A DNA stretch of 64,000 bases from Thermodesulfobacteriota bacterium (GTDB lineage: Bacteria > Desulfobacterota > Desulfobacteria > Desulfobacterales > SURF-7), in assembly GCA_049320885.1 (NCBI GenBank), contig JBMORA010000030.1:1-64000 (forward strand), in the 5' to 3' direction. Position 1 is the stretch's first letter; each line of letters begins with the position of its first letter. Below, one piece after another: positions 51,451-64,000 of this stretch. The position numbers were made by a program, and so were the translations under genes. The notes under the pieces are model-generated. The model searched no databases and had not been told where the DNA came from. It saw nothing but the letters and a program-made list of their open reading frames with translations.

Positions 51451-51675
51451 CTGTTTTTTCCGCATCCTGTCTGATGATGGATCACACGCCAATGAACCGG
51501 TAGGGATATCCAATGGTTTCCCATATAAAGACGAAGTCTTGGCTCAGAATCCATATCAGTGATAATTCTTGAATTCAAGCGCTATTTCTGCTGGCACTTT
51601 CGGGGAGTTCATGGTAATTCGGGCCTGGATGCCCTACAACTGTTCAAAAAACGACGGAATTCGTTTGACGGATGG

Positions 51676-52329
51676 ATGCGTATCGTGACGACCAAAAAAA
51701 CATTTCAAAACCTGTCGCCTTCCAAGCAGGATCGCATCACCCTGGCCGCCATCGAGGAGTTCAGCGAAAAGGGATATGCCGGCGCCAGCATCAACGCCCT
51801 GGTGGATCATCTCGGGATCGCCAAAGGTTCCATCTTTCAATATTTCGGCGATAAAAAAGGATTGTTCTATTTTATTTTCGATACCTGCACCGAAATGGTG
51901 AAGGCCAGACTGCGGATCATCCGCGACCAGACCCGGGACGACCAGCTCTTCTCCCGGCTGGAAAAAAGCCTGACGGCCGGGGTGGCCTTCTTGAGCGAAC
52001 ATCCGCGCATCTACAAGCTGTACCTGCAGGTGTTGTTCGGTTCCAAAATTCCGTTCCGGGACGAAATTCTGCTTTCCCTCCGGAAATACAGCCATGAATA
52101 CCTGCATTCACTGCTTGAATCGGCAAGGGATAAGGGCGAGCTGCGGGAGAACCTGGACATGGACAAGGCCTGCTTCGTCATCGACGCCATCATGGACCGT
52201 TTCCTCCAGGCTCATATGATCCGGCATCTGGACGCCGGCGTCGGCCTGCACCAGGCGGATGATCCCCTCATCCAGGTCTGGATCGCCGAATTGATGGAGA
52301 TCATCCGGCACGGCATCGGCCGGTCGTGA
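51676..52329 (+). CDS. TetR/AcrR-family transcriptional regulator
   Basis: AIEEFSEKGYAGASINALVDHLGIAKGSIFQYFGDK (TetR HTH); start uncertain (ATG 51676 or GTG 51685). Confidence 0.92.
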   Translation: MRIVTTKKTFQNLSPSKQDRITLAAIEEFSEKGYAGASINALVDHLGIAKGSIFQYFGDKKGLFYFIFDTCTEMVKARLRIIRDQTRDDQLFSRLEKSLTAGVAFLSEHPRIYKLYLQVLFGSKIPFRDEILLSLRKYSHEYLHSLLESARDKGELRENLDMDKACFVIDAIMDRFLQAHMIRHLDAGVGLHQADDPLIQVWIAELMEIIRHGIGRS

Positions 52330-52350
52330 CCTCCTCATGGGGAGCCGCCT

Positions 52351-53109
52351 ATGACCCATCTTCTCATCTTTTCCGCCGTACAAGCGGAGACAGCCGCCCT
52401 GGAATCCTGTATTCAGGGATCGGAGACGCATGTCATCGGACGCCGGCGGCTGATGTCAGGCCGTCTCGAGGGCCGGGAAATCCGGTTGTTGGTCACCGGA
52501 CCCGGTGCCGCCAACACCCTCCAGGCGGTCACCGCCTGCATCGAACGCGACCCTCCCGCCATGATGATCCAGACGGGAATCGCCGGAGCATTCGGTGAGA
52601 CGCGGCTGCAAGTGGGCGACCTGGCCGTGGCCACCGAGGAAATCGACGTCCAACTGGGCATCGAACCGGAAGCGGAGGATGCCGCGGTCGTCCCGCTTCC
52701 CTTCGCGGTTCTTGCTCATCAGGGCGCGACCGTCACCGGCAGATATCCGCTGCCCTCCCGGCTGGTGGCAACCGCCCTGGACGTTTTACGGCGGCGTTAT
52801 CAGGGACGGGAAGTCCTAATCCAGGCCGGACCCTTTGTCACCGTCGCCACGGTCACGGCAACGGAAAAGCGGGCCAGACGTCTGTTCCATCAATACGGCG
52901 CCTGCATGGAAGCCATGGAAGGCGCCGCGGCGGCCCATTTGTCCCTCCATTATGACATACCCCTTTTGGAAATCCGTGCGGCCAGCAACATGACGGGCCG
53001 GCGTGACCTGACGTCATGGAATATCCCCCTGGCCTGCTCCCGGTGCAGTGAGGCCGTCCGGATTTTTCTTCAGGAGACCGGACCGGAAGCATACGGAGAC
53101 CGACCATGA
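52351..53109 (+). CDS. mqnB: Futalosine hydrolase
   Basis: PNP/MTAN fold (TGPGAAN, TGIAGAF, TVATVT, EAMEGAA, EIRAASN..G.RD..W) in an mqn cluster. Confidence 0.9.
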   Translation: MTHLLIFSAVQAETAALESCIQGSETHVIGRRRLMSGRLEGREIRLLVTGPGAANTLQAVTACIERDPPAMMIQTGIAGAFGETRLQVGDLAVATEEIDVQLGIEPEAEDAAVVPLPFAVLAHQGATVTGRYPLPSRLVATALDVLRRRYQGREVLIQAGPFVTVATVTATEKRARRLFHQYGACMEAMEGAAAAHLSLHYDIPLLEIRAASNMTGRRDLTSWNIPLACSRCSEAVRIFLQETGPEAYGDRP

Positions 53110-53972
53110 ACCGACGCATTACCCTGGGTTTTTCCACCTGTCCCAACGACACTTTCATTTTCCATGCCCTTGTCCATCAACTGGTCCCCTGCGAGGGGAT
53201 CCGCTTTGCCGCGGAGTTGAAGGACGTGGAATCCCTCAATCAGGAAGCCCGGGCGGAACGCTACGATGTTTCCAAACTGTCCTTCGCAGCCATCGGACGG
53301 TTGCTGGACCGGTACGGTCTGCTGCGAAGCGGCGCGGCCCTGGGACGGGGCTGCGGCCCGCTGCTGGTGGCCCGGCCGGGGACCGTGATCCGGCCCCAAG
53401 CCAGGCAGGTGATCGCCGTCCCGGGCCTCTGGACCACGGCGAACCTACTGCTCGGACTGTTTCTGCCGAAACCGCCCATGGTGATGCCCATGCCCTTTGA
53501 TCTCATCATGCCGAGCGTCCGGGAGGGAAAAGCGGACATGGGCGTCATCATTCATGAAGGCCGCTTCACCTACGGGGAATATGGGCTCGCGGAATTGTGC
53601 GATCTCGGTGCCTGGTGGGAGGAGCGGACATCCTTGCCGATCCCCCTGGGCGGGATCGCCATCCATCGCCGGACGGAGGAACCAATCGGCCGGAAAATCG
53701 AGGAGGCCATCGCCGCCAGCGTCCGGCATGCCAAGCAATTTCCGGAGGCCTCACGGGAATATGTTCACCGGCATGCCCGGGAAATGAGTCCCGCGGTCAT
53801 CCGTCAACACATCTCCCTGTATGTCAATGATTTTTCCATCGATGTGGGGGGGGAAGGCGAAAAGGCCATCCGCCTGCTTTTTGCCAAGGCCGCCGAAAAA
53901 GGCTTGATCCCGCCGCCCAGGGGACCACTGTTCGCTTTTGAAGGCAAGGGCCGTTCCCTGCGGGACAGATAA
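53106..53972 (+). CDS. mqnD: 1,4-dihydroxy-6-naphthoate synthase
   Basis: GFSTCPNDTFIF, GAALGRGCGP, IIHEGRFTY, PIPLGGI, HISLYVN. Confidence 0.96.
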   Translation: MNRRITLGFSTCPNDTFIFHALVHQLVPCEGIRFAAELKDVESLNQEARAERYDVSKLSFAAIGRLLDRYGLLRSGAALGRGCGPLLVARPGTVIRPQARQVIAVPGLWTTANLLLGLFLPKPPMVMPMPFDLIMPSVREGKADMGVIIHEGRFTYGEYGLAELCDLGAWWEERTSLPIPLGGIAIHRRTEEPIGRKIEEAIAASVRHAKQFPEASREYVHRHAREMSPAVIRQHISLYVNDFSIDVGGEGEKAIRLLFAKAAEKGLIPPPRGPLFAFEGKGRSLRDR

Positions 53973-54877
53973 ATCACCTTGGCCGGGCAGGACTGGGCGA
54001 AAGACAAGTGCACAGGCTCCTGCAGCAGGCCCTGGTGGGCCAGACAGTTGTAAAAATGCCGGAGCCCCAGTTTTTTGAACGGATCTAGGTCATACCGCAG
54101 CCGGCGGTAATACGTATCCAGAAAGGTGGAATCCAGGCCGGTGGCCCGGGCAACGCAACAGACGACCTGGTCGATATGCCGGATGCCTTGGTTTTTCGAC
54201 CGGACCAGGGCGGCACCGATGGCGGAAACGATGTCCGGGTGATCCAGGGCGAATTGCCGGCGCACCGCCCAGAGGGCGAAGACGAACGGCAGGCCGGTCA
54301 TCCGGCGCCACATCCCCCCCAAATCCCAGATAAACGGGAATCGGCGGGACCAGTCGTTGCGGAGGGCCTTGTCGCCGATCACCAGAAAAGCCGCGACGCC
54401 GGGATCGAGATTCCCGGGGTCTTCAATGCCGGCCGTGATCCATCGGGGGGTTATCCCCCTATGGCTGCAGATCAGTTTCGCCAGAGCCGCCGCCGAGGCG
54501 GACTCATCGGTGATGCAGACCGGTTCTCCCTGCAACCGATGGAGGGGCAGCCGGCTGACCAGGAGCACGCTCATGACGTTTCCAAAACTGGAGATGGACA
54601 GATCCGGCAGGATCTGCCAGTCTCGATGATGAACCGCATAGGCGGCGGATGAAACCGGACTGATATCGATGGCCCCCTCTGCCAGCAGGCGGTTCAATTC
54701 CGCAGGCGTTCCGTTCACCCAGACCGGATCATCCGGCCCGGCCTGCCGGTCCATGTTGTAATAGACCGGCGCGACATTCAAATATTTGATTCTGCCCACG
54801 CGCACTTCCGGCGCGTCCTTCCCCAAGCGATTCATACAGCTCCCTGCCATGAAAATGTCCGTCTCCCTACCTGTCAT
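53804..54877 (-). CDS. mqnA: Chorismate dehydratase
   Basis: GRIKYLNVAP, GTPAELN, SVLLVS, IGDKAL, DLGGMW...TGLPFVFALW; ATG 54877 forms an ATGA overlap with the upstream stop; 3' end overlaps mqnD. Confidence 0.88.
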   Translation of the reverse strand: MTGRETDIFMAGSCMNRLGKDAPEVRVGRIKYLNVAPVYYNMDRQAGPDDPVWVNGTPAELNRLLAEGAIDISPVSSAAYAVHHRDWQILPDLSISSFGNVMSVLLVSRLPLHRLQGEPVCITDESASAAALAKLICSHRGITPRWITAGIEDPGNLDPGVAAFLVIGDKALRNDWSRRFPFIWDLGGMWRRMTGLPFVFALWAVRRQFALDHPDIVSAIGAALVRSKNQGIRHIDQVVCCVARATGLDSTFLDTYYRRLRYDLDPFKKLGLRHFYNCLAHQGLLQEPVHLSFAQSCPAKVIYLSRRERPLPSKANSGPLGGGIKPFSAALAKSRRMAFSPSPPTSMEKSLTYREMC

Positions 54878-56124
54878 GCGGTTCCCAAAAGCCTTCCGCC
54901 GGCTGTCGGACCCGACCCGACCAGCGCGGCCGCCAGTTCCTCCCGGGAGGCGGCTTCCAGCGGCAGGTACAGCATGGCACCCTGTTTTCCAGGGGTCAGG
55001 GTCCCGAAATGCGCGGCAAGCCCCAGGGCCGCGGCGCCGTTCTTCGTGGCCATCCGGAGGATCGAGCAAGGCGATAAACCGGGAAACATCCTGGCCAGAA
55101 ACGCCATCTCGTCGAAGATATCCAGGCTGTCCACGCTTGCCAGACTGTCGGTCCCCAGACAGAGGTTCACCCCGCTCCGGTGCAAGGCCTCCACATCCGG
55201 CAATCGCCGATGCAACCGTTGGTTGCTTCTGGGGCAGAGACACACGGACGGTTGATGCTTCCGCAGCAAGTCCCGGTCTTCCCCGTCGCAATGGATGCAA
55301 TGCACCAGGATGGTGCGCCGGTCCAGAAGTCCCAGCCGTTCCAGATAGCGGACCGGCGAGGCCGATCCGACGGGCCAGTCCTGAAAATCAATGCCGCGCT
55401 CCGTCAACAAATCCGCCCACGCGCCCTTCCCTTCCGCAAGAAAAGTCATTTCGTCCTCGGATTCGGCGGCATGGATGGAAAAAGGCGCATCGTCCCCGCG
55501 CGTCCGGCTTTTCAGGGCGGCCAGCACCCCGGGGGACGTGGTATGCGGCCCATGTCCGGCCAGCGCCGCGATCCGGAACGAATCGATTTGCCCGCCCTTC
55601 CCCTCCACGGACAAGGCGGCGGGGTCGCCCCCCAGAAGCTCCTGAAACCAGACGCCGCAAAGCCCGGAAGCGAAAAACATCTCCCGGGTCAGGCCGGTGG
55701 TGGAGATGTCGCCGACCAGCAGACACCCGGAAGCCTTCAGGAACCGGACCGCGTTGCGGGCGCTTTCCAGGAGGCTTGCGGCGTCGATTTCATCCCGCAG
55801 GCGGATGAGCTCGCGCACCCAGGATCGAAATTCCGGCCAAGATCCGATTCTTCCCTGCAAGGCGGACAATTCCAGATGGGTGTGAACATTGGCCAGGGGG
55901 GGCATCAACACGCCGGAACCATGATCCGTAACCAACGCATCCCCCGGCACCCTGCCCCGCCCCACCTCGCGGATGATCCGGTCCTCGATCACCACATAGC
56001 CGTTTTGAAGGATGTCATCCGGGTCCACCATCACCCAGCCGGCGCGATGAACCTGGCGCAAAGCCCCCCGGGGCCGGGAACCCGGCAGCGTAAGCGATGA
56101 TGCCATGGAGCCTGCCGACGTCAT
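54874..56124 (-). CDS. Amidohydrolase, probable aminofutalosine deaminase
   Basis: NVHTHLE, HGPHT, IHAAES.DE, VHC, CPRSN, LGTDS; lies between mqnC and mqnA. Confidence 0.8.
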   Translation of the reverse strand: MTSAGSMASSLTLPGSRPRGALRQVHRAGWVMVDPDDILQNGYVVIEDRIIREVGRGRVPGDALVTDHGSGVLMPPLANVHTHLELSALQGRIGSWPEFRSWVRELIRLRDEIDAASLLESARNAVRFLKASGCLLVGDISTTGLTREMFFASGLCGVWFQELLGGDPAALSVEGKGGQIDSFRIAALAGHGPHTTSPGVLAALKSRTRGDDAPFSIHAAESEDEMTFLAEGKGAWADLLTERGIDFQDWPVGSASPVRYLERLGLLDRRTILVHCIHCDGEDRDLLRKHQPSVCLCPRSNQRLHRRLPDVEALHRSGVNLCLGTDSLASVDSLDIFDEMAFLARMFPGLSPCSILRMATKNGAAALGLAAHFGTLTPGKQGAMLYLPLEAASREELAAALVGSGPTAGGRLLGTA

Positions 56125-57185
56125 CGGCCATGAACCCGGATGAGGTTGTAAAAACAGTCCCGCTGCCGGGCCTCATATCCGGCATCCTGAATCAGCCGGA
56201 TCATTTCCGCCAGCGGCAGACGGAAATGGACCCCGGCCGCGGCAACGACATTTTCCTCGATCATGGTGCTGCCCAGATCATTGGCGCCGAAGGCCAGGGC
56301 CGCCTGCGCCACCTTTTCCCCCTGGGTGACCCAGGAAGCCTGGATGTTGGGCACATTGTCCAGCATCAGACGGGAAAGCGCCAGCACCCGCAGATACATC
56401 ACGGCGGAGGCTGTTTTTCCGGGAAGGCGGGTGTTCCCGGGCTGAAACGTCCAGGGGATGAAGGCGGTGAACCCGCCGGTCCGATCCTGCAACTCCCGAA
56501 TTTTGGAAAGATGCTCGATGATATGACGGTTCTGTTCAATGTGTCCGAACATCATGGTGGCGGTGGATTTCAGCCCCAGGCCGTGGGCCGTTTCCATCAC
56601 CTCCAGCCATTCCCCGGCAGTGAATTTGCGGGGCGAGATGACGGCGCGGATGTCATCCGCCAAAATCTCGGCGCCGCCGCCGGGAATCGATCCGAGACCA
56701 GCCTCCATGAGCTCCGCCAGCACGTTTTCGACCGACAAGCCGGACTGTCTCGAAATAAACAGGATTTCCGGAGGAGAGAACCCGTGGACGTGAATGGGAA
56801 AGCGGCTCTTGATGAACCGCAGGAGTTTCCGGTAATCCTCCAGTTTCAGCTCCGGGTTCAACCCGCCCTGAAGCAATATCTGGGTTCCCCCCATGTCCAG
56901 GGTCTCCTCGATTTTCCGGCTCAAAACCGCTTCGGTCAGCAGGTAACCCTCCGGATGCCCGGGCTCCCGGTAAAAAGCGCAAAAATCACATCCGGAAAGA
57001 CAGATATTGGTATAATTGATATTGCGGTCGATCACAAAGGTGACGCCATTATCCGGATGGAGTTCAACCCGTTTCTGATGAGCCCGGGCTCCGAGTTCGA
57101 GCAGCTCCGCATGGTCCAGCAGGCGCAGGGCTTCCTGGGCGTCCAGGCGTTCATGACGGCGAGATGTCCGAACAGGGGCGGTCAT
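56121..57185 (-). CDS. mqnC: Cyclic dehypoxanthine futalosine synthase (radical SAM)
   Basis: IDRNINYTNIC..GCDFC, LLQGG, SIPGGGAEIL, FIPWTFQP, NIQASWVTQG, EENVV. Confidence 0.93.
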   Translation of the reverse strand: MTAPVRTSRRHERLDAQEALRLLDHAELLELGARAHQKRVELHPDNGVTFVIDRNINYTNICLSGCDFCAFYREPGHPEGYLLTEAVLSRKIEETLDMGGTQILLQGGLNPELKLEDYRKLLRFIKSRFPIHVHGFSPPEILFISRQSGLSVENVLAELMEAGLGSIPGGGAEILADDIRAVISPRKFTAGEWLEVMETAHGLGLKSTATMMFGHIEQNRHIIEHLSKIRELQDRTGGFTAFIPWTFQPGNTRLPGKTASAVMYLRVLALSRLMLDNVPNIQASWVTQGEKVAQAALAFGANDLGSTMIEENVVAAAGVHFRLPLAEMIRLIQDAGYEARQRDCFYNLIRVHGR

Positions 57186-58303
57186 CCGGCCTCCTCCAGT
57201 CCGTCCACCGGCCGGTAAAACGAATCCCGTTCCACCGGAATGAAACCGGCGTCGGCGATCAATGCCCGCATGTGATCGGATGAAAGGCCCTTGGCGGAGG
57301 TGGCCCCGGCCATATGGGTGATTTTTTCCTCGATGATGGTCCCGTCCAGATCGTCGGCGCCGAAGGAAAGCGCGATCTGGGCCAGTTTCTCCCCGATCAT
57401 GACCCAATAGGCTTTGATGTGATCGAAATTATTCAGCAACAGGCGGGCCGCCACGATATTGCTCAGATCATCGAACGCCGTTGTCGCCGGCAGATGGGCC
57501 AGTTCCGTGTTTTTGGAATGGAAGGCAAGGGGGATGAAAGCCGAAAAGCCGCCGGTGCGGTCCTGAAGATCGCGCAGCCGGATCAAATGGGCCACCCGCT
57601 CCGCAATGGTTTCAATATGGCCGTACAACATGGTGGCGTTGGATGACAGTCCGCATCCATGGGCTGTTTCCACCACCTCGATCCATTTTTCCCAGCTGAT
57701 TTTTTTTGGAAACAGGGCCTGATGAATCCGCTCGTTCATCACCTCGGCACCGCCACCCGGCATCATGCCCAGACCGGCCGCCTGTAATTCGCGGATCACT
57801 TTCTCGATGGAAAGACCGGATATTTTGGAAAAATGATTGATTTCCACGGCCGTGAAGGCCTTGATCGTGGCCAACGGTCGCAGTTCCTTGATGGTACGGA
57901 CCAGGCTCAGATAATAGCTGAAGGGCAAGGCCGGGTTGATTCCTCCCACCACGTGCAGTTCCCGGATGGGTTCCCCCAGGCGCTCCGTCACCCGGTCGCG
58001 AATGTGATCCAGGGCCAGGGTAAACGCGCCGTTGCTCCCCTCCTGTTTTGAAAAGGCACAGAAGCGGCAATGATTGATGCAGACATTTGTATAATTGATA
58101 TGCTGATTATAGACAAAATAGGCCTTGCGGCCATGACGCCGTTTGCGAACTTCGTCGGCTATCCGGGCCTTGCCGATGAGATCCCGGCTTTCATACAGCA
58201 GCATGCCGTCTTCAGGTCCCAGGCGCCGTCCCGCTCTCACTTTTTCCCGGATGGCCAGCAGTCGCTGATCCGATATGGGCAGATCGTACATCTTCTCCAA
58301 CAA
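57182..58303 (-). CDS. mqnE: Aminofutalosine synthase (radical SAM)
   Basis: HINYTNVCINHCRFC, ELHVVGG, KAFTAVEI, NATMLYGHIE, HIKAYW, EKITHMAG. Confidence 0.94.
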   Translation of the reverse strand: MLEKMYDLPISDQRLLAIREKVRAGRRLGPEDGMLLYESRDLIGKARIADEVRKRRHGRKAYFVYNQHINYTNVCINHCRFCAFSKQEGSNGAFTLALDHIRDRVTERLGEPIRELHVVGGINPALPFSYYLSLVRTIKELRPLATIKAFTAVEINHFSKISGLSIEKVIRELQAAGLGMMPGGGAEVMNERIHQALFPKKISWEKWIEVVETAHGCGLSSNATMLYGHIETIAERVAHLIRLRDLQDRTGGFSAFIPLAFHSKNTELAHLPATTAFDDLSNIVAARLLLNNFDHIKAYWVMIGEKLAQIALSFGADDLDGTIIEEKITHMAGATSAKGLSSDHMRALIADAGFIPVERDSFYRPVDGLEEAG

Positions 58304-58500: not shown

Positions 58501-58884
58501 ATGCTGATTCGGACACATCAGAAGATCGACAACGCGTATTGCGGTGCCCCCGTTGAACTGCAGGACGGGTACAGCAAGGTGGCGTTGACGACCATGGAAG
58601 AAATGGCGGTGGATGAGATGGGCCTCGTCCATGGCGGTTTTATCTTCGGCCTCGCCGATTACGCGGCCATGATTGCCGTGAACCATCCCCATGTGGTTCT
58701 GGGAGCGGCAGATGTCAAATTCACCAAGCCGGTCAGGGTCGGGGACACGGTTACGGCCGTTGCCCGGCTGGAGAAAAACGAAGGCAAGAAACAATCCGTA
58801 TCCGTCACGGTTTCCAGGGCATCCGAAACGGTTTTTACCGGCAATTTCATTTGTTTCATTCTGGAAAAACACGTGCTGGGCTGA
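58501..58884 (+). CDS. Hotdog-fold (PaaI-like) thioesterase
   Basis: GLVHGGFIFGLADYAAM, VKFTKPVRVGD. Confidence 0.88.
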   Translation: MLIRTHQKIDNAYCGAPVELQDGYSKVALTTMEEMAVDEMGLVHGGFIFGLADYAAMIAVNHPHVVLGAADVKFTKPVRVGDTVTAVARLEKNEGKKQSVSVTVSRASETVFTGNFICFILEKHVLG

Positions 58885-58891
58885 CAAACCA

Positions 58892-60292
58892 TCACTTCCT
58901 GCGCACCCGCACCAGTTTGCGGCGCTTCTGGGGGCTGTCGCCGCCGGCCGGAGGGGGGATCGGCGGTCCCAGATGATTCTGGGAAAAGGAGCAGGTGGCC
59001 CGCGGGCATTTCAGGCCGACGCGGTCTTGGGCGGTGAATTCCACCAGGAAGCTGTTCCGGCATAGCGGGCAGGAAAAGGCATGCGGTTTCCCCCAGCTGA
59101 TGAACCCGCAGTTCCCGTTGGAACAGGTATAATATTTCCGACGGGTTTCCGTTTCCTCCATGCGGATCCTGCCGGTGTGACATAAGGGGCATTCCATGGC
59201 CAGGTTTTCCTGGAAGGCCTCGATTTTTTTCTCTATGCCGGGCAGTTCGTCCCCATCCGGCGGAGATTCCGTTTTCTTTTCCTGCAAGCGCATTTCCGCT
59301 TCCCGGGCCTGGATTTCCAGCTCCCGGGCTCTGATCTCGGCTTCCCGGGCTCTGATCTCCGCTTCCCGGGCGGCGATTTCCGCCGCTTTCATTTGCGCCT
59401 CCCGGGCCGCCAGTTCCGCCGCTTTTTGCTCCGCTTCCAGGGCCGCTTGATGAGCCGCCGCCGGCCCGGAATCCGGTACATCCCCGACGGCCGTTCCGTT
59501 CACTGGAAACTCCGGTTCCGACTCCGGCTTTTGTTCCGGCTGCCCGGCAGGCTGTTCCACCGGCCGCTTGGGAAACAACTCCTGGACCGCCACGGCGCCA
59601 GACGGACGAACGCTCTGGTACACCTTGGGAGTCGGAACGGCTTGCTCGTCGCGGCTTCGCAATCTGGACAGGCGCTCGGTAAACGCGGACTTCACGTCTT
59701 CCGATATTTTCCTGGACTCAAAGGATCCGACGACTTTGTCCACATGTTTTTTCAGGGTCTCTTTTTCGTTTTGCTGCAGTTTCTGTTTCGACAGGGGAAT
59801 ACCCTGGGACAGGAGGGTCTGGTCGAACTGTTCGAGAGCATCCTGCAGTTTTTTCCGGTTACTGATCACTTCGTTGATCATCTGCAGGATGTACCCCACC
59901 AGGTTCAATCCGGTCATTCCCGGGAAAAGATTGTCCAGGAAACTCACCAGCGCGAAGGCGGAAATCTGGGCATGGTAGCGGTCATCGTCCAGGATGGCCA
60001 CGTACCCGTGCTGCACCAATGTCTGAAACGAGAGCATCAGGTCATCATCGACCTCCAGTCCGATGTCGGCCAGATCGTCGAAAAAGGTTTCCCGGGTGTA
60101 ACGTTTGGGGGGAGATGCCGGAAATTTGCGGATTTCATTCTCCCGTTCCACGATCAACAGGAGACAGGAAATGGATGAAAGCGTGAATGTAACGGTGTTC
60201 GCAAGGGTCTGCAGCTCCAGCAGGCGCTGAATATGCCTGACGATCACCGCGTCGAATTGCGCCCTGACTTCCGCGAGCTCTGTCTGTTCCAT
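58892..60292 (-). CDS. Hypothetical protein with coiled coil and C-terminal topoisomerase-type C4 Zn-ribbons
   Basis: CPLC...CSNGNC.F.SW.KP...CPLC...CPRATC; AREAEIR repeats; basic tail KRRKLVRVRRK. Confidence 0.75.
   Translation of the reverse strand: MEQTELAEVRAQFDAVIVRHIQRLLELQTLANTVTFTLSSISCLLLIVERENEIRKFPASPPKRYTRETFFDDLADIGLEVDDDLMLSFQTLVQHGYVAILDDDRYHAQISAFALVSFLDNLFPGMTGLNLVGYILQMINEVISNRKKLQDALEQFDQTLLSQGIPLSKQKLQQNEKETLKKHVDKVVGSFESRKISEDVKSAFTERLSRLRSRDEQAVPTPKVYQSVRPSGAVAVQELFPKRPVEQPAGQPEQKPESEPEFPVNGTAVGDVPDSGPAAAHQAALEAEQKAAELAAREAQMKAAEIAAREAEIRAREAEIRARELEIQAREAEMRLQEKKTESPPDGDELPGIEKKIEAFQENLAMECPLCHTGRIRMEETETRRKYYTCSNGNCGFISWGKPHAFSCPLCRNSFLVEFTAQDRVGLKCPRATCSFSQNHLGPPIPPPAGGDSPQKRRKLVRVRRK
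59286..59446 (-). repeat. Intragenic heptad repeat (AREAEIR-like)
   Basis: Near-tandem 21-nt units (e.g. cttcccgggctctgatctc) encoding AAREAQMKAAEIAAREAEIRAREAEIRARELEIQAREAEM. Confidence 0.75.
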
Positions 60293-60302
60293 TGGATTGT
60301 TC

Positions 60303-60722
60303 TCAATCCTTGTTTATTTCGGTCATCATCTCGGCTATCTGGGATGCCATCTGGGAAACCTGCTGATTGGCGGGATCCCCGTTCGCCTCAGCACCGGGGT
60401 CATCCTGCACAGTTTCCGATTTCCGGTCTTCATCACTGTACGCTGAATCTCCCTGACGATCAACGGCCGTCACCTCGATGCATTCCCCTTTTCTGTCGAA
60501 TAAAACCGAGAGCGCGACTTTTACATCAAATTCAAGCCGGTAGGCAATTTGCTCGTTGTGAACGACCAAATCCCCTTTGCGATACTCGATTTCATCCTGC
60601 AGACCGAGATGGTATTTTTCGCGGAACAGTTGTTCGATGGCCTGCCAGTCCAAATCTCCGGTAATGGCGTCGATCAGCTCTTTTTCACTGCTTTTGATGG
60701 TTTCGGAATCGGTGATTTTCAC
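60303..60722 (-). CDS. Small acidic hypothetical protein
   Basis: 139-aa GTG-start ORF filling the gap between the ParA-like and Zn-ribbon genes on the same strand; GGAGA RBS. Confidence 0.7.
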   Translation of the reverse strand: MKITDSETIKSSEKELIDAITGDLDWQAIEQLFREKYHLGLQDEIEYRKGDLVVHNEQIAYRLEFDVKVALSVLFDRKGECIEVTAVDRQGDSAYSDEDRKSETVQDDPGAEANGDPANQQVSQMASQIAEMMTEINKD

Positions 60723-60743
60723 TGGTTCTCCATGGCAAAAAGA

Positions 60744-61511
60744 TCAGTTTTTATATATTATATTGATAAGTTCCACCGAAAAATCGAGATAGGACCGAGC
60801 CCCCCGGCTCATGATGTCATGCAGGTGAACCGGGCGGCTCTTCATAAAAGACTCCGGAACCGCTTTGTCATGGGGGATGCGGGTTGTGAAAGACGGTAGT
60901 CCGCCGGGCAAGCCATCGTCGGAGATTGTCCCCGCCTGGGGCTGATGCCCGCCGGTATCGGCAACCAGGATGCCGGCGATCCGCAATGCCGGATTCAACT
61001 CTTTCTGGACGATTGCGACCACGTCCTGCAAATGCCGCAGCGCGGCGATTCCCCGGGACGTGGGTTGAAACGGAATGACCAGCCAATCCGCCGCGGCCAG
61101 GGTGCAAACCGTAAAAAAGCCCAGGGTGGACGGCGAGTCCATTACAATGATATCGAAGGAGGGCGAGGATTTCCGGGCCAGTCTGCTCAGAATCATTTCT
61201 TTGCCGGGCTTCACGGCCAGTTTATACTCGGCCTGAAACAAATCAATCCGGGACGGCAGAATATGGAGCCGGTCCAGCTCCGTCGCCTTCATGATATCAT
61301 CCGGCAGGGCCTGACCCATGAAGGCGTCATACAGGGACGGCCCCTGATCCATATCCGGAATCCCCAGCCATTGTGTGGCCGCGGCCTGGGGATCGCAGTC
61401 CATCAGCAGGGTCGTTTTTTCCATCAGCGCAAAGGACGCCGCCAGACTGACGGCGGTAGCGGTCTTGCCGCTTCCGGCTATTTGGTTGGATATGCAGATG
61501 ATTTCAGTCAT
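60744..61511 (-). CDS. ParA/Soj-family ATPase with deviant P-loop
   Basis: NQIAGSGKTATAVSLAA, LLMDCDPQ, ILPSRIDL, DIIVMDSPSTLG, ADWLVIP, LNPALRIAGIL. Confidence 0.85.
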   Translation of the reverse strand: MTEIICISNQIAGSGKTATAVSLAASFALMEKTTLLMDCDPQAAATQWLGIPDMDQGPSLYDAFMGQALPDDIMKATELDRLHILPSRIDLFQAEYKLAVKPGKEMILSRLARKSSPSFDIIVMDSPSTLGFFTVCTLAAADWLVIPFQPTSRGIAALRHLQDVVAIVQKELNPALRIAGILVADTGGHQPQAGTISDDGLPGGLPSFTTRIPHDKAVPESFMKSRPVHLHDIMSRGARSYLDFSVELINIIYKN

Positions 61512-61643
61512 ATTGTTTTTTACCACACAAATGAATATTTGGGAAGACGGTTTTCCGGAGAGCGCCGGGAAATCGCATTCAAAAGGCCAAACAGGCACTC
61601 CTTCATCCCTGCTGGAAGCAGCGGCCGGGGGAAAAGCGGCTGC

Positions 61644-61672
61644 TTGAACAATCGCAACAACTATCGTATACT
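61644..61672 (+). promoter_or_regulatory. Putative sigma70 promoter of the FGE-like/xerD unit
   Basis: TTGAAC (61644-61649), 17 nt, TATACT (61667-61672). Confidence 0.6.
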
Positions 61673-61773
61673 CCGGTTGTCTGTTTCCCCGCGACCGTTT
61701 TCTGCGCTTTCACCCGGGGCCGCGATTGGTTGGATGCCGTGGGAACGGCCGGTCCGAATCCCGAGGAGGCTGC

Positions 61774-63447
61774 TTGCCGTCTTCCATATCCCTTGAAGGT
61801 ATTGATCTGGCCATCGCCCATCTGAATTATCGCAATGTCCACGCGCCCAAATACAAACTCATTCACGCCATCCGGCGGTATTATGATTCCGCCGACGCCA
61901 TCCGAAAACTCCGGCGCATCGACACGGCAGAACTGATCCGGCTCATCTGGGATCTTGGTGACGATCCGGATCTGATCAAATCCAAGCGGAAAAATTTCAA
62001 CAGCATCCGTTCCACCGTGAACGCCGACCTCCTGAATCTGTATCGCGACGATAAAAATCCCGAAGGGATCGCCATCTCCGCCGACAACATCTTCGAAATG
62101 TCGGACAGCGCCAAGGATGAACTCCTTTCCTCCTTTTCCGACGCCGTTCAATCAGGCGGCGGCGCATCCCTGAAAAAAATATCCGAGGTGCTGGGCCTGC
62201 TGAATGAGCTCCTGACGGAACCGCAAAAACTCACGGAAACGGATTCAAGGGACGAACTGCTTAGGATCGCGGAACTGGTGAAAGGCTTGTCCCAAAAAGT
62301 CGTCGGCGACGGTGGGGCGGACGTCCGCCCCGGCGAGTCGCCATCCGGTCAGACCGACGACCTGGAAACCGTGGACGAGGACGAGATCGTCGAGGTCGAC
62401 GAGGACCTGGTGGAGACCCTGGAGGAAGAAGCGGCCGCCGACGCTCCGGCCGACGACCTGGAAACCGTGGACGAGGACGAGATCGTCGAGGTCGACGAGG
62501 ACCTGGAAACCGTGGATGAAGACGAGATCGTGGAAGTCGATGAGTGGCCTCCTGGTGACTTGGGCGCCGAGGTCGGCATGCCGTTCGGCCCCGCAGATGA
62601 ACACCGCCCTGAACCGGACGATGATCTCCTGTCGGAACAATTTGACGGGTATCTGGGCGCCATGGAACGCTATTACAACCAGTACATCCATGTACCCGCC
62701 GGCGAATATACCATCGGGAGAAAGCGGCCTCACACCAACGAATTGCCTCTTCAGCAGGTCTATCTCCCCGGTTTTTACATGGGCAAATACCCGGTGACCA
62801 ATGCCCTTTTCGAGGTCTTCGTGGAAAAAACCGGCTATGTAACCACAGCGGAAAAAAGAGGCTGGGGGATCGTGTACGTCGGACGCTTCCGGAATGACCG
62901 GGACCCCAAAACCGGCAAACGCAAGTCCCTGTGGAATACCAGCACCCAAAAAAATCAGGTCCAGGGAGCGTTCTGGTATCAACCGGCGGGTCCGGGCAGC
63001 ACCCTGCATCACAAACGCAATCACCCGGTGGTCCAGGTCAGCCTGGCCGATGCCCGGGCCTTTGCCGCCTGGACCGGGAAAAGACTGCCCGGCGAGCTGG
63101 AGTGGGAGGCCGCCATGCGATCGGATTCGGCTTTCGTCTATCCCTGGGGCAACGAATGGCGTGAAAAAAACTGCAACACGGAAAAATCCGCCGTGGCCGA
63201 CACCACGCCCGTGGACCGGTATCCCGAGGGCCTCAACTCCTTCGGCATCGCCGACGCCATCGGCAATGTGCTGGAATGGACCGCCGACGAAACCAAAACA
63301 CCCTTTGCAGCCGTTCGCAAGGCCGTGTACCATAGCGTGCGGGGCGGCAGCTGGATCTCAGGAGACGAGGTCACCCTGCTCACCCGTTTCCGGTTTGAAG
63401 TCACCTACACCTCCAACATTCTGGGATTCCGCTGCGTGGCGGATTGA
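61774..63447 (+). CDS. SUMF1/FGE-fold domain protein with N-terminal extension and acidic repeats
   Basis: C-terminal VPAGEYTIG, YPVTNALF, HPVVQVS..DA.AFA.W.GKRLP.E.EWE, GNVLEW, RGGSW, GFRC; TTG start at 61774 after GAGGAGG. Confidence 0.85.
   Translation: MPSSISLEGIDLAIAHLNYRNVHAPKYKLIHAIRRYYDSADAIRKLRRIDTAELIRLIWDLGDDPDLIKSKRKNFNSIRSTVNADLLNLYRDDKNPEGIAISADNIFEMSDSAKDELLSSFSDAVQSGGGASLKKISEVLGLLNELLTEPQKLTETDSRDELLRIAELVKGLSQKVVGDGGADVRPGESPSGQTDDLETVDEDEIVEVDEDLVETLEEEAAADAPADDLETVDEDEIVEVDEDLETVDEDEIVEVDEWPPGDLGAEVGMPFGPADEHRPEPDDDLLSEQFDGYLGAMERYYNQYIHVPAGEYTIGRKRPHTNELPLQQVYLPGFYMGKYPVTNALFEVFVEKTGYVTTAEKRGWGIVYVGRFRNDRDPKTGKRKSLWNTSTQKNQVQGAFWYQPAGPGSTLHHKRNHPVVQVSLADARAFAAWTGKRLPGELEWEAAMRSDSAFVYPWGNEWREKNCNTEKSAVADTTPVDRYPEGLNSFGIADAIGNVLEWTADETKTPFAAVRKAVYHSVRGGSWISGDEVTLLTRFRFEVTYTSNILGFRCVAD
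62354..62544 (+). repeat. Intragenic acidic repeat DLETVDEDEIVEVDE x3
   Basis: 45-nt unit at 62359-62403, 62455-62499 and 62500-62544; 62354-62410 and 62450-62506 are identical over 57 nt. Confidence 0.9.
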
Positions 63448-63452
63448 GGCTC

Positions 63453-64000
63453 ATGAATCCATTTGACCCGCTGATCGACCGGTATGTGAATTACCTCTTG
63501 ATCGAAAAAGGGCTGTCCGCCAACACCATTTCCGCCTACAGCGCCGATTTAAGCGCCTACAGCCGTTTCGCCTCCGAAAACGGAATCACGGGGGTCGAAG
63601 GAATCGATCAGGCCGCCATCCTGAAATACATGATCGAAATGCGCCAATCCGGCCTGAATGCCAAATCCAGGGCCCGGCACCTGGTGACCCTGCGTGGTTT
63701 TCATAAATTTCTGCTGAATGAAAACATCCTGGCCCAGGATCCCACAGCGGCCCTGGATTTACCAAAGACAGGCCTGCGCCTGCCGGAAGTCCTTTCCGTT
63801 GACGATATCGCCAGGCTTCTGCACGCACCGGACCAGGAAAAGCCGCGGGGGCTGCGGGACAGCGCCATGATCGAGCTGCTGTACGCTGCCGGCATGCGGG
63901 TGTCGGAACTCATCGGCATGAAGCTGCAGGACATCAACCTGGAGGCCGGCTTTGTCCGGGTCTACGGCAAGGGTGACAAGGAACGGATCGTGCCCGTCGG
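63453..64000 (+). CDS. xerD: Site-specific tyrosine recombinase XerD (3' truncated by window edge)
   Basis: My translation from ATG 63453: MNPFDPLIDRYVNYLLIEKGLSANTISAYSADL...LRGFHKFL...LPEVLS...GLRDSAMIELLYAAGMRVSEL...GKGDKERIVP. Confidence 0.92.
   Translation, partial: MNPFDPLIDRYVNYLLIEKGLSANTISAYSADLSAYSRFASENGITGVEGIDQAAILKYMIEMRQSGLNAKSRARHLVTLRGFHKFLLNENILAQDPTAALDLPKTGLRLPEVLSVDDIARLLHAPDQEKPRGLRDSAMIELLYAAGMRVSELIGMKLQDINLEAGFVRVYGKGDKERIVPV

Follow-up and report, generated by a model that had tools for sequence, protein, structure and literature searches.

A topoisomerase I relic and its FGE-fold partner, probably linked to the flagellar system in Thermodesulfobacteriota

The stretch of DNA analysed here (the window; 64,000 nucleotides (nt), with which contig C30 begins in a Thermodesulfobacteriota genome of 5.6 Mb and 98% completeness) carries near its end five genes in two divergent groups. 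On the minus strand lie the genes for a 466-residue pseudo-topoisomerase (58892..60292; open reading frame (ORF) call, with fold and sequence comparison), a small acidic protein of 139 residues and net charge −17 (60303..60722; ORF call) and an orphan Soj-like ParA (60744..61511; 255 residues from its ATG, 284 from an upstream GTG at 61598); on the plus strand lie the genes for an FGE-fold protein of 573 residues (61726..63447; ORF call, with a TTG at 61774 and its ribosome-binding site at 61763 as the likelier start) and for XerD (63453..64000; 298 residues from the ATG at 63453, extending beyond the window). A candidate σ70-like promoter, with −35 and −10 hexamers 17 nt apart (61644..61672, plus strand), would serve the FGE gene. 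A Pfam/NCBIfam scan assigned AAA_31 ParA, FGE-sulfatase and XerD, and returned zero matches for the acidic protein. A preliminary description had suggested that all five could belong to a single module for nucleoid or division-site positioning; the gene gaps that it gave (10 and 21 nt on the minus strand, 5 nt between the stop codon of the FGE gene and the ATG of xerD) were exact on recheck. We find that the constant unit is the 466-residue protein together with the FGE protein, a pair that follows flagella.

The 466-residue protein is a topoisomerase I relic, consisting of domain IV fused end to end and the last two zinc ribbons of TopA. Residues 1–170 (59783..60292, minus strand) are TopA domain IV, in which the two TopA segments flanking domains II and III are fused at residues ~58–61; there follow a variable linker, a coiled coil (277–340), a helix with two C4 zinc ribbons (353–434) and a basic tail. 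In a fold search with the predicted model (pLDDT 77.6), the top eight rows were all type IA topoisomerases (Z 12.2–16.2), whereas the next row, the best ordinary winged helix, reached 7.6; seven of the eight aligned 161–176 residues at a root-mean-square deviation of about 3 Å, and the top row covers both ends at a deviation of 22. Foldseek likewise ranked type IA topoisomerases first, but with E never below 0.001. A profile of the N-terminal domain matched type IA enzymes in 22 of 22 hits among PDB sequences (best E 1.7e-7) and matched the genome's intact TopA at 134–189 and 455–525, segments that map end to end onto relic residues 2–58 and 55–126; the ribbons match TopA 679–754, its last two zinc ribbons, with probability 96. 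Each of these segments is one half of domain IV; domains II and III have been excised at the hinges, and TOPRIM has gone. Of the earlier label of the protein as winged helix-turn-helix, coiled coil and zinc ribbon, the second and third parts hold; the first is replaced, on the PDB profile hits and fold rows, by topoisomerase IA domain IV.

Neither the TOPRIM acidic metal-binding motif nor the catalytic tyrosine motif occurs in any of the relic orthologues (0/92 for each), and the domain II arch and domain III are excised. The family keeps the Arg and Asp of the QARRxLD helix (Arg or Lys in 83/93, Asp in 88/93) and shares the motif FPGMxGxNL; in the groove, GRPST of TopA has become an acidic E.DD.L and SAGRVQS is lost, and the replaced positions, often acidic in the relic, are those we take to bind the cleaved strand in TopA. 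Conserved aromatic residues lie on the ribbons, and the last 20 residues contain on average 10.5 Lys/Arg (90 orthologues). Database labels that call some orthologues “DNA topoisomerase I” are wrong; an intact topA is retained in every relic carrier checked. A split topoisomerase completed by its neighbours was also considered and rejected, as profiles of the acidic protein and of the FGE protein's N-domain miss the genome's TopA among 45,327 ORFs.

Two distant genomes outside the class (G395 and G388; we number genomes G, contigs C, loci L and families f) encode a full-length topoisomerase I paralogue opposite the same FGE gene (L191:6320-9067 and L192:3-2099). These paralogues match Toprim and Topoisom_bac and carry the family motif FP.M.G.NL; their catalytic tyrosine is replaced, their TOPRIM motif is degenerate, and both genomes have a separate intact topA elsewhere. 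Homology together with these surviving full-length dead intermediates shows an origin by duplication and loss: a topA duplicate lost catalysis and domains I–III, leaving a non-enzymatic domain IV, a spacer, the terminal zinc ribbons and the basic tail. The probable order of duplication, inactivation and pruning is read from the sequences and not from a rooted tree. Parts of the relic recur in other proteins. Domain IV is fused to HDOD in second copies in three genomes (L159:6151-7641, L160:6569-8068 and L161:5978-7606), and in the window genome and its two congeners DUF4388 is followed by an acidic linker and a relic-type helix, zinc ribbons and basic tail (L140:7181-8104, i.e. G000:C46:43156-44103; likewise in G001 and G002). 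G059 has two tandem domain IV genes (L057:1365-3769), one of them short and without ribbons.

The partner protein comprises a conserved N-domain of ~180 residues, an acidic repeat linker and an FGE/SUMF-fold domain. Its linker ranges from 119 to 777 residues with a median of 53% Asp/Glu (51 gap-free orthologues; 3 skipped), and its FGE domain is closest to SUMF1/SUMF2 (E about 1e-52). FGE enzymes depend on a catalytic cysteine pair; the segment bearing that pair is shortened in the partner and has no cysteine in 39 of the 41 scorable rows among 55. The partner has no membrane segment (maximal 19-residue hydropathy 1.04). The N-domain, present in 14 of 251 genomes of a phylum sample, carries conserved basic residues and is possibly an OmpR/SARP-type winged helix, an unproven assignment for which the nearest Atlas clusters (AfsR/SARP-type at 0.88) offer only a lead. 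Upstream of many FGE gene orthologues σ70-like elements can be recognised by eye. Membership of the locus genes in a σ54 or σ28 regulon was rejected, because strict motifs occur in at most 1 of the 83–95 upstream regions per gene and are no commoner than in reversed controls; a loose sigma pattern upstream of the relic gene in 47/95 may stem from the coding end of the acidic gene.

A GTDB scan for relatives of the 466-residue protein confirmed 229 stretches, 80 of which underlie the locus counts; the named relatives are Desulfobacterales and allied Thermodesulfobacteriota, with Desulfobacter among the named carriers. The census of the pair and of flagella covers 151 genomes of the class, each at least 90% complete. 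In the census, relic and FGE N-domain occur together in 49 genomes, the relic alone in 1, the N-domain alone in 3 and neither in 98; i.e. 49 of 50 relic carriers have the partner. In 68 of the 80 loci the relic gene and the gene of the FGE N-domain point away from each other, an arrangement that is more than chance; among the other 12, nine have less than 1 kb of upstream DNA, two stop just after ParA, and L133 is the sole genuine exception. The synteny survey upheld the co-conservation and lineage-specificity expected in the preliminary description and broke up its single five-gene unit: ParA is absent from 6 and the acidic gene from 3 of the 68 loci, xerD is separable, and in L189 and L193 the relic and FGE genes share an operon that contains no ParA, acidic gene or xerD. 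The relic probably binds its partner through the FGE fold: a three-chain complex prediction scored 0.35, versus 0.00 for the best of three controls, including one that replaced the FGE fold, with at least 15% of contacts shared between runs and a partner pLDDT of at least 61. In a benchmark of this score 116/157 solved and 2/215 mismatched pairs reach the mark; the band up to 0.60 holds 18 of the 157 solved pairs and both passing mismatches, and a value of 0.35 rates as weak support.

The presence of the pair tracks that of the flagellum. flhA was found in 48 of the 50 relic carriers versus 40 of the 101 non-carriers, and in 10/10 further carriers beyond the census. Within mixed families the same genomes are positive for pair and flhA (3/7 in f5, all of one genus; 3/9 in f6; 2/6 in f50); in f1, counted in a set of 60 relatives that overlaps the census, relic, FGE gene and flhA each occur in the same 8 of 17 genomes (agreement 17/17); in f37, flhA is missing from 6/31 genomes, each of which lacks the relic, the FGE gene or both. 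Four genomes without flhA (G092, G115, G140 and G180) keep xerD, ParA and the acidic gene on one contig, the relic and FGE genes on both sides being gone; in G100 the FGE gene is truncated and fliG is still present, and the closed genome G098 has only ParA and the acidic gene. On a XerD tree of 48 loci, at least three changes are forced for the five losses. PilT (146/151 genomes) and CheA (111/151, including 9/9 in f6 and 6/6 in f50) do not track the pair, and type IV pili and general chemotaxis were rejected as its correlate; a flagellum-specific chemosensory system may still be one. The acidic gene, as a further control, does not track flagella (17 of 74 carriers lack flhA). Five loci adjoin flagellar genes: L098 (flgN, flgK, flgL, csrA and fliW), L105 (motA and motB), L107 (fliW and csrA), and L165 and L053 (flgM and/or DVU0524). 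From the repeated co-loss we infer that the pair is likely linked to the flagellar system and needed only when the cell builds a flagellum.

The flagellar clusters of carriers differ in layout from most clusters of non-carriers, and in the 20 kb read cheA was present in 0/10 carriers and 5/10 non-carriers. Two layouts recur in L194–L213: in the first, additional genes separate fliA from flgF and cheA is not close by, and in the second flgM-flgN-cheA-cheR comes after flgJ. The gene after fliA (G000:C34:109586-111214 and C17:147966-148375, contig ends that probably join; L195–L200) encodes a protein in which many acidic SQDDID.L repeats accompany a membrane segment and, at the C terminus, a domain that is FliL-like by eye; the one copy scanned had zero Pfam match. 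This protein was rejected as carrier-specific (7/10 carrier and 0/10 non-carrier clusters) because shorter forms are visible by eye in three non-carriers. At L053:12872-14125 and G000:C34:64957-66210, near flagellar genes, a single ORF joins a MerR helix-turn-helix to PseB, the pseudaminic acid dehydratase.

The two genes between the pair, ParA and the acidic gene, are a separable orphan-ParA pair. ParA lies directly upstream of the acidic-family ORF in 81 of 96 cases, and the earlier suggestion of a dedicated ParA partner is upheld for the acidic protein; the two also occur together in genomes without the relic, and adjoin flagellin in G044. The accessible portion of PMC9178275 tabulates ParA signature motifs and reviews orphan-ParA pairs. 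Among the ParA orthologues the Walker A Lys is kept in 77/81 and the Walker B Asp in 80/81, and the protein is fast-evolving, optional across loci and often degenerate or lost. It had been called deviant: the signature lysine is indeed lost in the window copy, where it is Ile, but the loss is local, with Lys in 53 and Arg in 16 of the 81 orthologues. The positions that we take to be the nucleoid-binding arginines of Soj, mapped via the genome's canonical ParA, are His and Ala in the window ParA; across orthologues the first is Lys/Arg in 35/81, and at the second Arg is not among the six commonest residues. The genome has three more orphan ParA-like genes (G000:C50:34083, C45:40956 and C35:39960), the C45 one with a C-terminal extension that is glycogen-binding-like by eye.

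The acidic protein has an α/β N-domain (1–88), a variable acidic linker and a conserved C-terminal helix. No fold stood out for it (best Z 6.6; Foldseek none at E 0.001); 499 relatives were found at E 0.001 among 1.84 billion sequences, the six that were scanned lacking a Pfam family, and an Atlas search gave only hypothetical Thermodesulfobacteriota clusters. In ABC-transporter clusters, some of them close to cheD, second acidic-family copies come after a CheY-like receiver that is joined to an NMT1-type binding domain (L162–L164 and L152), and elsewhere the N-domain occurs as a tandem duplicate or behind pentapeptide-like repeats (L142:6575-7348, L143:6626-7249 and L155:6021-6989).

The locus lacks parB and parS, as had been noted: the genome has two parB matches and three parS-like sites (at most 2 mismatches), none on this contig, and carries a canonical parA-parB and a perfect parS away from the locus. 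With parB and parS on other contigs, a separate canonical parA present and the Soj positions not kept, we rejected a role in chromosome partition. A link to XerD was rejected as well: xerD stands in conserved order in 40/80 loci, is missing within 8 kb in 6/80, is absent from the L189 and L193 operons and is kept when the relic and FGE genes go, and it is a conserved neighbour that forms the context of the unit and lies outside it. The other flank is housekeeping in character, with a hotdog-fold thioesterase gene (58501..58884, plus strand) and futalosine-pathway radical SAM genes (56121-58303); window positions 51559-58303 hold futalosine menaquinone genes (phosphorylase-family, MqnA/D-type, amidohydrolase and two radical SAM) and a TetR regulator. 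Because these menaquinone genes are conserved on the opposite flank too, synteny alone is no proof of a single system. At L002:2690-8514 a Na-NQR-like redox cluster lies downstream of xerD, behind an ArsR regulator and a methyltransferase, with a different codon wording and gene style.

What the pair does can be proposed from sequence with graded confidence. Somewhat better than even, in our judgement, are the chances that the TopA-derived domain IV and zinc-ribbon adaptor with its dead FGE-fold partner is a control or assembly module of one Thermodesulfobacteriota flagellar system, possibly acting via TopA's RNA polymerase or single-strand tether, and, jointly with this, that living genomes preserve the steps: the full-length dead enzyme, the minimal form, and shuffling onto HDOD and DUF4388 signalling proteins. 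The most likely specific role, proposed tentatively and at a little under even odds, is that of a pseudoenzyme pair regulating flagellar gene expression. The relic and its co-inherited partner, whose terminal FGE fold lacks the cysteines and follows an acidic linker, would work together as a cytoplasmic two-protein regulator; the partner N-domain and the relic's ribbons and tail may touch nucleic acid or RNA polymerase, a contact that the acidic linker may damp as a DNA mimic. The σ70-like promoter, the lack of a σ54 or σ28 motif, the basic and aromatic surfaces and the flgM, csrA and fliW neighbours speak for a regulator. According to the accessible parts of PMC9352719 and PMC10969213, the C-terminal domain of E. 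coli TopA binds RNA polymerase.

Several observations weigh against this proposal or against the flagellar link behind it. The window genome's flagellar operons carry σ54 and σ28 motifs, so a conventional activator may suffice. Relic domain IV has a net charge of −10 and has lost its single-stranded-DNA-groove residues; hhalign of the FGE N-domain against four OmpR-type domains gave probabilities of 0.8 and 1.6, and Pfam and PDB searches give no support for a winged helix there; the HDOD and DUF4388 fusions suit protein-protein signalling; and overexpression of dead TopA, or of the C-terminal domain of TopA, is toxic to E. coli, according to the accessible text of PMC9352719. Flagellar queries matched only 3 of 104 loci, most loci adjoining housekeeping genes. 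The relic occurs without flhA in G034 (a flagellin match, no fliG), G125 (fliG, no flagellin) and the 77% complete G060 (one other flagellar match); in carrier families, G112 and G130 possess flhA but not the pair; and 40 of the 151 genomes are flhA-positive without the relic. The census genomes are kin, and hence not independent, and are mostly drafts; the co-loss is set against no genome-wide null.

The pair could instead be a soluble polar scaffold or signalling hub that resembles PopZ or HubP in the way it works but not in sequence. Its disordered acidic linkers would organise the assembly of the flagellum or its chemosensory input, and ParA and the acidic protein would help to place it. 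HubP/FimV and PopZ resemble the locus in their long acidic repeats, a nearby orphan ParA and a link to motility; HubP/FimV has a membrane segment and a periplasmic LysM domain, whereas the locus proteins have no membrane segment or LysM match, and no sequence relation was found. Long, length-variable acidic linkers in all three proteins of uncertain function, the loss of catalytic and groove residues, the domain IV–HDOD and DUF4388–ribbon fusions, the PilZ, CheD and CheY-like neighbours and a ParA without DNA-binding arginines would suit a scaffold. Yet the FGE protein has no membrane anchor, ParA and the acidic gene are retained in genomes that lack flagella and can be missing from genomes that have them, and the basic residues of the N-domain and the aromatics of the ribbons suit nucleic acid. 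We give a scaffold somewhat lower odds than a regulator.

A shift of lifestyle, to sessile cells with streamlined genomes, might have removed flagella and pair independently; genomes without flhA are often smaller, and the missing null model leaves room for it, but the agreement between pair and flagella inside single genera and across three matched sister cases, the five loci that directly adjoin flagellar genes and the retention of the two genes between the pair make it improbable. Still less probable is a relic acting as a natural TopA competitor or modulator. It would draw off RNA polymerase or underwound DNA as a decoy and in this way tune supercoiling, to which flagellar genes would be sensitive. 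The relic does keep the outermost TopA ribbons, intact topA stands in every carrier checked, and the E. coli C-terminal domain and the Y319F variant act as competitors (accessible text of PMC9352719); an obligate FGE partner and strict loss with flagella would go unexplained, and the toxicity of overexpressed competitors tells against it. The five-gene positioning module linked to XerD, with the conserved xerD order and its two DNA-related folds and ParA in its favour, is largely refuted and very improbable, as a canonical parABS lies elsewhere, the parts separate, relic and FGE genes vanish with flagella as xerD and ParA stay, and L189, L191, L192 and L193 have neither xerD nor ParA.

The pair belongs to none of TopA, ParABS, the FGE enzymes or HubP/FimV. 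With TopA the relic shares the fold and sequence of domain IV, the terminal C4 zinc ribbons and the Arg/Asp of QARRxLD, and its full-length relatives match Toprim and Topoisom_bac; it differs in lacking TOPRIM, domain II and domain III, in being an extra copy beside an intact topA and in tracking flagella. The partner has the FGE fold of SUMF1 and its inactive paralogue SUMF2/pFGE, but its cysteine-bearing segment is shortened, and the fold is joined to an acidic linker and to an N-domain outside the known families. Like FlhDC and FleQ/FlrA, the pair is cytoplasmic by sequence, tied to flagella and under a σ70-like promoter, and FlhDC too comprises two proteins, one with C4 zinc sites; unlike them, it gives no family match and is built of TopA and FGE folds. 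PomXYZ is an orphan-ParA system. ParC/ParP, PpfA/TlpT and McdAB likewise combine a ParA lacking parB and parS with a small partner gene directly downstream, as the accessible portion of PMC9178275 describes them, whereas the acidic partner here matches no known family or fold and its ParA is often degenerate or lost. The preliminary description knew of no system with this gene set, and a literature search, which extended to neither supplements nor most subscription papers, found none; nor did listings and the openings of abstracts describe the relic protein or the cluster, though supplements might list these genes in proteomes.

Our work corrects a recurrent mis-annotation as topoisomerase I and extends the list of orphan-ParA pairs by one whose partner, the acidic protein, lies outside known families. 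If our reading is correct, the relic would be a pseudo-topoisomerase that serves a purpose other than DNA topology and whose evolutionary intermediates are still extant. In sulfate reducers of sediments, organisms whose motility control has been little studied, it would form with its FGE-fold partner an accessory pair new to the bacterial flagellum.

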